DNA from: Candidatus Merdimorpha stercoravium
GTDB lineage: Bacteria; Bacteroidota; Bacteroidia; Flavobacteriales; UBA1820
Reading direction: 5' to 3'
Assembly: GCA_018715295.1 (NCBI GenBank)
Contig: DVLY01000008.1
Location: 1 to 29,570, forward strand
DNA: 29,570 nucleotides
Positions 17,594 through 17,719 of this stretch are shown here, piece after piece. Under the pieces are notes generated by a model. That model ran no database searches and was not told the DNA's origin. It saw only the letters and a program-made list of their open reading frames with translations. Every line of letters begins with the position of its first letter. Positions within the stretch are counted from its first letter, which is position 1. The position numbers and the translations under genes are program-made.

Positions 17594-17719
17594 TTACCAG
17601 GGGCCTCCGTCGCCGTAGCCGGGCGCCGAGACGGCGAACCCACGTTCGACATCGACCTGTACGACCTCCGCCGTGGGGGCGAGGTATTCCTTTCGAAGGT
17701 GTTTTTTGTTGTCTTTCAT
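17594..17719 (-). CDS. Unannotated 41-aa peptide MKDNKKHLRKEYLAPTAEVVQVDVERGFAVSAPGYGDGGPW
   Basis: Hand-translated ATG (17719) to TAA (17594); 30 of 41 codons end in G/C, like host genes; lies between a -7 box and the lipoprotein gene; YxxP...E.GF..S pattern. Confidence 0.75.
   Translation of the reverse strand: MKDNKKHLRKEYLAPTAEVVQVDVERGFAVSAPGYGDGGPW

Follow-up and report, generated by a model that had tools for sequence, protein, structure and literature searches.

A hidden 41-residue ORF that lies just ahead of a surface lipoprotein gene in Candidatus Merdimorpha stercoravium is likely to encode the ribosomally made precursor in a Bacteroidota form of the LPP RiPP pathway. LPP (linear polyphosphorylated peptide) clusters, with the genes lppA-K-B-S-D-N, are those described in Paenibacillus alginolyticus DSM5050 (Popov et al., Nat Commun 2026, PMC13381572). 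The window, that is the whole stretch of 29,570 nucleotides analysed here (contig DVLY01000008.1), carries the peptide gene, the lipoprotein gene and a divergent regulator gene; the putative maturation enzymes are encoded on another contig of the same genome. A preliminary description of the window had pointed out the ORF and offered three roles for its product, namely an RRE-dependent precursor processed in trans, a strand-donating chaperone of the lipoprotein, or a cis-acting leader. It also named homologues, selection and structure prediction with the genome-encoded PqqD proteins as ways to look at them. The features of the window are the following.

17594-17719, minus strand: gene of 41 aa, stop codon included, putative precursor peptide (LppA-like); from translation, homologues and dN/dS
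17627-17686, minus strand: conserved leader motif Y-L-A-P-T-A-E-V-V-Q-V-D-V-E-R-G-F-A-V-S, codons 12-31; from family column frequencies
17597-17626, minus strand: variable tail APGYGDGGPW, codons 32-41, predicted core with or without S31; tails hypervariable across the family
17765-17772, minus strand: promoter-like box TACATTTG, fitting TAnnTTTG, 45 nt upstream of the peptide ATG
15404-17545, minus strand: partner lipoprotein gene, 713 aa from MKTTKYLL; the lipobox Cys is residue 32 of the 725-aa ORF
16577-17440, minus strand: predicted type V pilin-like (FimA/Mfa superfamily) N-terminal region of the lipoprotein; from the AlphaFold2 model and Foldseek
15413-16108, minus strand: C-terminal PCMD domain of the lipoprotein; Pfam PF13201, 7.1e-35
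17952-18830, plus strand: divergent AraC-family regulator gene; HTH_18, 2.7e-21

The 41-residue ORF is a real coding gene under purifying selection and belongs to a conserved family. It runs on the minus strand from an ATG at 17719-17717 to a TAA at 17596-17594, and its translation, MKDNKKHLRKEYLAPTAEVVQVDVERGFAVSAPGYGDGGPW, is exactly the one first proposed. The host-like codon bias claimed for it came out the same on recounting, with G or C at the third position in 30 of the 41 codons (GC3 of the adjacent lipoprotein gene, 0.66). Among close orthologues dN/dS ranged from 0.10 to 0.34 (dS of 0.43 and dN of 0.098 for the window peptide against its counterpart in genome G001). Within codons 12-31 third positions held 47 of the 69 differences between orthologues, and in the N-terminus and the tail the substitutions were even across codon positions. 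Near-identical small proteins were found in 11 clusters whose names were uninformative, and an exhaustive profile (HMM) search of 1.84 billion representative proteins returned 1386 clusters of the family (50% identity, E <= 0.001), nearly all of 31-60 aa. A chance ORF is ruled out by these 1386 clusters together with the dN/dS values. The peptide has no signal peptide, and a second copy of it is present on contig C2 of the same genome.

The consensus of 229 family members consists of a basic N-terminus of about 8 residues followed by Y-E-A-P-x-V-E-V/I-I/V-E-V-x-V-E-K/Q-G-F-A-x-S, the most conserved columns being Y, P, E13 and G (100% each), F (99%), A (98%) and S (93%). Position +5 of the leader is V, I, A or L, and hydrophobic and acidic residues alternate along the leader strand. 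The tails, by comparison, are hypervariable, with a median of 13 aa; they are rich in G/D/E/N/P/W, and Trp is the C-terminal residue in 80 of the 229 members. The YxxPx(hydrophobic) element is the predicted RRE-binding part of the peptide. G-F-A-x-S is the predicted junction between leader and core, and its conserved Ser is a candidate phospho-acceptor. Neither Pfam nor NCBIfam gave a real match to the window peptide or to ten central members, the only hit being a meaningless one to YM-216391 (E = 0.083), and a full-text literature search for the string VEVIEVEVE found no paper.

One to four copies of the peptide occur in 7 of the 9 genomes of the window's genus. In a second genus of the same order, with genomes of about 4 Mb, each genome has 7-13 copies and the peptides are longer (59-73 aa). 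Among named genomes, carriers include Bacteroides, Phocaeicola, Mediterranea, Alistipes, Odoribacter, Ca. Egerieisoma and MAGs labelled "uncultured Flavobacteriales"; two carriers in culture are Phocaeicola massiliensis DSM 17679 and P. faecalis. In a phylum-wide sample of 400 genomes the family was matched only in the window's genus, meaning that it is patchy and was missed by that sample. Several contigs with peptide-lipoprotein modules of typical Bacteroidales kind are filed as Bacillota MAGs (Faecalibacterium, Faecalimonas, Agathobacter and Lachnospiraceae; L083, L091, L111 and L129), and these contigs probably reflect binning contamination rather than transfer.

Looking upstream of the peptide gene, the box of its own that had been reported 45 nt ahead of it is indeed present at 17772-17765. 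It fits the Bacteroidota -7 promoter element TAnnTTTG. Five related loci have a box of this form at about the same distance; two of them are paralogous copies in other contexts, where nucleotide similarity starts near the ATG and stops at the stop codon. A sigma-70 promoter scan, which is uninformative for Bacteroidota, found no site in the region, and a terminator scan gave chance-level sites only. On the other side, the 12 nt described between the peptide stop and the lipoprotein gene are correct for the longest lipoprotein ORF (ATG 17581), but the orthologues begin with MKTTKYLL (ATG 17545), and the real spacer is therefore probably 48 nt. Chicken-gut metatranscriptome contigs from a relative about 90-95% alike cover the 5' end of the lipoprotein gene, the spacer and most of the peptide ORF; they come from two runs of one study and show presence only, not transcription, strand or ends.

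The divergent AraC-family gene, syntenic in three of four related metagenome contigs, is a possible regulator of the peptide-lipoprotein module. A second peptide-lipoprotein pair on the same 838-kb contig stands without an AraC-family regulator. Neighbouring genes at 20537-23584 (minus strand) and 10973-13522 (plus strand) include those for a 1015-aa Golvesin_C/fn3 protein and a GH20 beta-hexosaminidase with CHB_HEX, which suggests a glycan-foraging setting.

We then considered the protein encoded downstream of the peptide. As modelled, this partner is a surface lipoprotein of modular, type V pilin-like build. Residues 13-342 were modelled with AlphaFold2 (pLDDT 79), and the top Foldseek matches of the model in the PDB were Bacteroides cell-adhesion/fimbrial proteins, Mfa3, Mfa2 and the FimA prepilin (E 1e-9 to 1e-5, prob 1.0, TM 0.3-0.5). 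The protein has the lipobox AAGC and an S-T-R-T site after the first strand, and its PCMD domain spans residues 492-723, with PDB sequence matches to 4jrl, 3hbz and 4het. The Pfam Mfa_like_1 model did not match the window lipoprotein; an iterative search from its pilin-like domain reached 37 of 75 partner proteins.

The association of such peptides with fimbrillin-like lipoprotein genes, named in the preliminary description, was borne out. At every locus of the window's genus 13-39 nt separate the peptide gene from a lipoprotein gene downstream, and in the second genus each peptide gene is 10-44 nt ahead of one. The 80 loci taken from named genomes contain 85 peptide ORFs, and for 75 of these an ORF starts within 250 nt downstream; 61 of the 75 downstream ORFs have a strict lipobox pattern, and inspection by eye adds about 8 lipoproteins. 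At the N-terminus, 70 partner proteins share the consensus M-K-K...S-C...T-R...W-x-x-G-D-x-I-x-V, in which the Cys and the Trp hardly vary. Mfa_like_1 (fimbrillin-like) was recognized in 17 of the 70, BspA-type LRR in 10, Fib_succ_major in 8 and Lcl_C in 8, and others carry DUF285, DUF4465, GH32, GH43 or M64. The modules may also be repeated: at L050 (G375:C1:3849000-3863000) three peptide genes about 2.3 kb apart form tandem peptide-lipoprotein modules, and tandem arrays are found at L048 as well. In two genomes of the window's genus (L010/L013) one lipoprotein gene is preceded by two peptide genes.

The window was said to hold no RRE gene, and this stands, its only match having E = 0.1. The genome as a whole has exactly one significant PqqD/RRE gene (PF05402, 1e-14), and it belongs to a small cassette.

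Genome G000, contig C179 (L068 1284-4025): putative maturation cassette, with genes for PqqD, a PF14907 nucleotidyltransferase, a P-loop protein and a peptidase

The nucleotidyltransferase matches PF14907 (NTP_transf_5) at 3.7e-45. The P-loop protein (312 aa) has weaker matches, below the model cut-offs, to ScmC (a SynChlorMet cassette protein; 2.9e-5), HprK_rel_B (0.008) and PEPCK, and its position in the cassette is conserved. The peptidase is a soluble protein of 147 aa that matches Peptidase_S24 (2.1e-6) and, below the cut-off, sigpep_I_arch (1.6e-5); in peptidases of this type S31, H70, D85 and D98 are near-invariant. An ABC exporter is absent from the C179 cassette, and the best ABC match in this 82%-complete assembly is a generic one on contig C43 (7e-50). 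The cassettes of G001, G006, G007 and G008 are likewise without an exporter, and in those of G002 and G003 an exporter gene separates the nucleotidyltransferase gene from the kinase-like one. With the PqqD profile, a PDB sequence search returned the lasso RRE TfuB1 only (E = 0.001), 9x8z not being returned, and the same search with the peptide profile gave no match, 9x8z included.

Peptide and cassette go together across genomes. In a set of 401 genomes from the order, the HMM for the peptide and that for the PqqD subfamily match the identical 10, and both are missing from the same two genomes of the genus (99% and 94% complete); as the carriers are mutually related, this co-occurrence amounts to perhaps three or four independent gains or losses and not to 401 trials. 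The two are also physically linked in relatives. The gene order in G003 is peptide, lipoprotein (1274 aa), PqqD, nucleotidyltransferase, ABC exporter, kinase-like protein and peptidase, and in G002 the peptide is 6.5 kb from the cassette. A cassette lies within 10 kb of the peptide at 10 of the 80 Bacteroidales loci, and 9 of these 10 are complete; it is usually directly behind the lipoprotein gene, as in P. massiliensis DSM 17679 and P. faecalis. The contig of one typical family member has the order peptide, 958-aa protein, PqqD, P-loop protein and small peptidase-like protein. At L154 (9965-14460, a Bacteroidia genome) the order is peptide, kinase-like protein, peptidase, PqqD, nucleotidyltransferase and ABC exporter, with no lipoprotein gene. 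Two of the cassettes are found in polysaccharide loci: in G375 (L076, G375:C1:1707000-1725000) glycosyltransferase genes lie upstream and Wza/Wzc-like genes after it, and in G003 (L077, G003:C17) WecA-, UpxY- and RmlA-like genes follow.

The structure prediction of the peptide with the PqqD protein of its own genome scored 0.45, compared with 0.08 for the best of three controls. Of 80 solved complexes 58 reached the mark for a complex, as did 2 of 110 mismatched pairs, and passing scores of 0.60 or less were those of 7 of the 80 solved complexes plus both passing mismatches. This result weakly supports the C179 PqqD as the RRE of the peptide leader. In the predicted interface, peptide residues 9-24 pack against PqqD residues 28-38 and the helices, an arrangement that is canonical for RREs; since lasso RRE-leader complexes have already been solved, the interface is a likeness rather than proof of binding. 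Taken together, the C179 cassette, the identical profile in 10 of 401 genomes, the linkage in relatives and this weakly scored interface favour, among the roles proposed at first, the RRE-dependent precursor processed in trans.

In the pathway that we propose, the Y12-x-x-P15-x-A17 element and the VVQV strand that follows it would bind the C179 RRE as an added beta-strand, and the RRE would offer the G27-F28-A29-V30-S31 junction to the peptidase. The conserved Ser31 may be phosphorylated by the kinase-like enzyme, and cleavage at the putative site would release a peptide of about 10-11 residues, rich in Gly, Asp, Pro and Trp and ending in Trp, (S)APGYGDGGPW, which may also be decorated further. 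The precursor would be co-transcribed with, or is at least placed immediately before, the gene for the type V pilin-like lipoprotein.

The predicted use of the leader strand bears directly on another role for the peptide, that of a free donor strand or chaperone whose AEVVQVDVE segment would fill the pilin groove of the lipoprotein after cleavage of the N-terminal strand. The alternation of hydrophobic and acidic residues in this segment would suit such a role. So would the partner's type V pilin-like fold, its lipobox and the S-T-R-T site that follows its first strand, and the near-universal pairing of the peptide with such lipoproteins. However, the peptide lacks a signal peptide and the C179 cassette an exporter, and the same strand is the one predicted to bind the RRE and corresponds to the leader strand that is removed during maturation in the LPP model (PMC13381572). 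Moreover, the strand is almost invariant across the family whereas the lipoproteins are highly diverse, and L154 has the peptide and the enzymes with no lipoprotein. We thus regard the strand-donating chaperone as improbable.

The short distance to the lipoprotein gene raises the alternative that the ORF is a cis-acting upstream leader, whose stalling or coupling would set the expression of the lipoprotein, the peptide itself having no role. The spacer is 10-50 nt in nearly all loci, the promoter-like box is found only ahead of the peptide, and the metatranscriptome contigs of the relative cover both genes (presence only). Such a leader leaves unaccounted for the exact co-occurrence with the PqqD cassette, the YxxP motif common to RRE-bound leaders and the tandem peptide genes, and at L154 the peptide precedes the kinase gene rather than a lipoprotein gene. 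As the sole function of the ORF it is highly improbable; the cis-leader and RiPP-precursor roles are, nevertheless, not mutually exclusive. A lasso precursor with its cyclase in an unassembled part of the genome would share the YxxPx(hydrophobic) leader, a PqqD protein whose best curated and PDB matches are lasso RREs, and the kinase and PF14907 genes, but we reject it as scarcely credible: the cassettes of the 13 loci examined have no Asn-synthetase-like cyclase or B2 protease and, as in LPP, a signal-peptidase-like protease takes the place of B2, Transglut_core3 (PF13471) has no match above the cut-off in the window's own genome, whose sole Asn synthase ORF (563 aa) lies on contig C56, and the tails are without the usual ring-forming layout.

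Returning to the precursor of an LPP-type pathway, the pairing of peptide and lipoprotein is conserved family-wide, and the peptide product therefore probably acts with or on the lipoprotein. Each substrate gene stands immediately before the gene of a pilin-like protein with a variable binding or enzymatic module, hence the hypothesis that peptide and adhesin work together. A more specific reading, for which we make only a tentative case and which is on balance unlikely, is that the matured (phospho)peptide serves the adjoining lipoprotein as a dedicated partner, acting as a ligand, a capsule or outer-membrane anchor, a groove-filling piece or a surface-display signal. If this were true, a RiPP pathway would serve the biogenesis of adhesins or pili in gut Bacteroidota, each adhesin with its own hypervariable peptide, and it would be the first biological role for LPP-type peptides. 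More generally, our results would place LPP-type machinery in gut Bacteroidota and in gut MAGs labelled Flavobacteriales. Its substrates would be a very large hidden family of genes of about 40 aa missed by annotation pipelines, and many "orphan" PqqD/kinase/peptidase cassettes in Bacteroidota would have their substrates elsewhere in the genome.

Among known systems, the type V pili (FimA/Mfa1, with tip pilins such as Mfa3) resemble the module through the partner lipoprotein, which is predicted to fold like FimA/Mfa proteins and has an Arg site behind its first strand; the C-terminal modules of the partners (PCMD, BspA-type LRR, Fib_succ_major, Lcl_C) recall the tip adhesins of these pili. They differ in that no stalk or anchor pilin genes lie beside the partner lipoprotein, and we know of no described pilus operon with a small cytoplasmic peptide gene or RiPP enzymes. 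Lasso systems of the paeninodin/pseudomycoidin type have in common with the Bacteroidota cassettes a YxxP leader with a discrete B1/PqqD RRE, a PF14907 gene and, in some relatives, an ABC exporter, and their HprK-like Ser kinase has a putative counterpart in the P-loop protein; unlike them, the cassettes have no macrolactam cyclase or B2 cysteine protease, and they encode a leader peptidase of the serine signal-peptidase type. Tailoring genes for a kinase and a PF14907 protein are typical of lasso clusters (PMC13381572).

The closest likeness is with LPP. Most LPP clusters were found in Bacillota, often inside capsule loci, and the words 'Bacteroid', 'lipoprotein' and 'pilin' do not occur in the main text of that study (PMC13381572). 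LppA is a precursor of 35-200 aa with the leader YxxPxVLxHQxIxFETxxS and a variable C-terminus; LppK is HprK-like, LppB is the RRE, LppS resembles archaeal-type SPase I, LppD is MsbA-like and LppN is an NTP transferase (PMC13381572). RRE binding requires Y-16 and P-13 of the leader, LppS cuts after T-1 in a manner that needs LppB and depends on F-3/E-2/T-1, and LppK poly-phosphorylates core Ser3 (PMC13381572). The window peptide, with its 41 aa, Y12-L-A-P15-T-A17 and a variable C-terminus, agrees with the LPP precursor pattern ([Y/W]xxPx[L/V/I/F/A], 35-200 aa). Both systems have a discrete PqqD-like RRE (here in trans, on C179), a PF14907 gene and a peptidase with similar near-invariant residues (S31/H70/D85/D98 here, S29/H68/D93 in LppS). 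The HprK-like kinase of LPP has a putative counterpart in the 312-aa P-loop protein. In both, YxxPxV opens the leader and a conserved Phe and Ser lie near its end, no cyclase is present and the cassettes are often in polysaccharide loci. The MsbA-like exporter of LPP is absent from the C179 cassette but present in the congeners G002 and G003 and in Bacteroidales cassettes.

The Bacteroidota variant nevertheless has features of its own. Its leader reads VEVIEVxVEKGFAxS with another spacing (Tyr to Ser, 19 here and 18 in LppA; Tyr to Phe, 16 here and 13 in LppA), and because of this difference the cleavage site and phospho-acceptor proposed above are guesses. The cores are shorter (median 13 aa compared with 45 aa). 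Precursor genes come in 1-13 copies per genome, for the most part away from the enzyme genes, and each is linked to the gene of a type V pilin-like lipoprotein. At L154, on the other hand, the gene order is close to the LPP layout of Paenibacillus.
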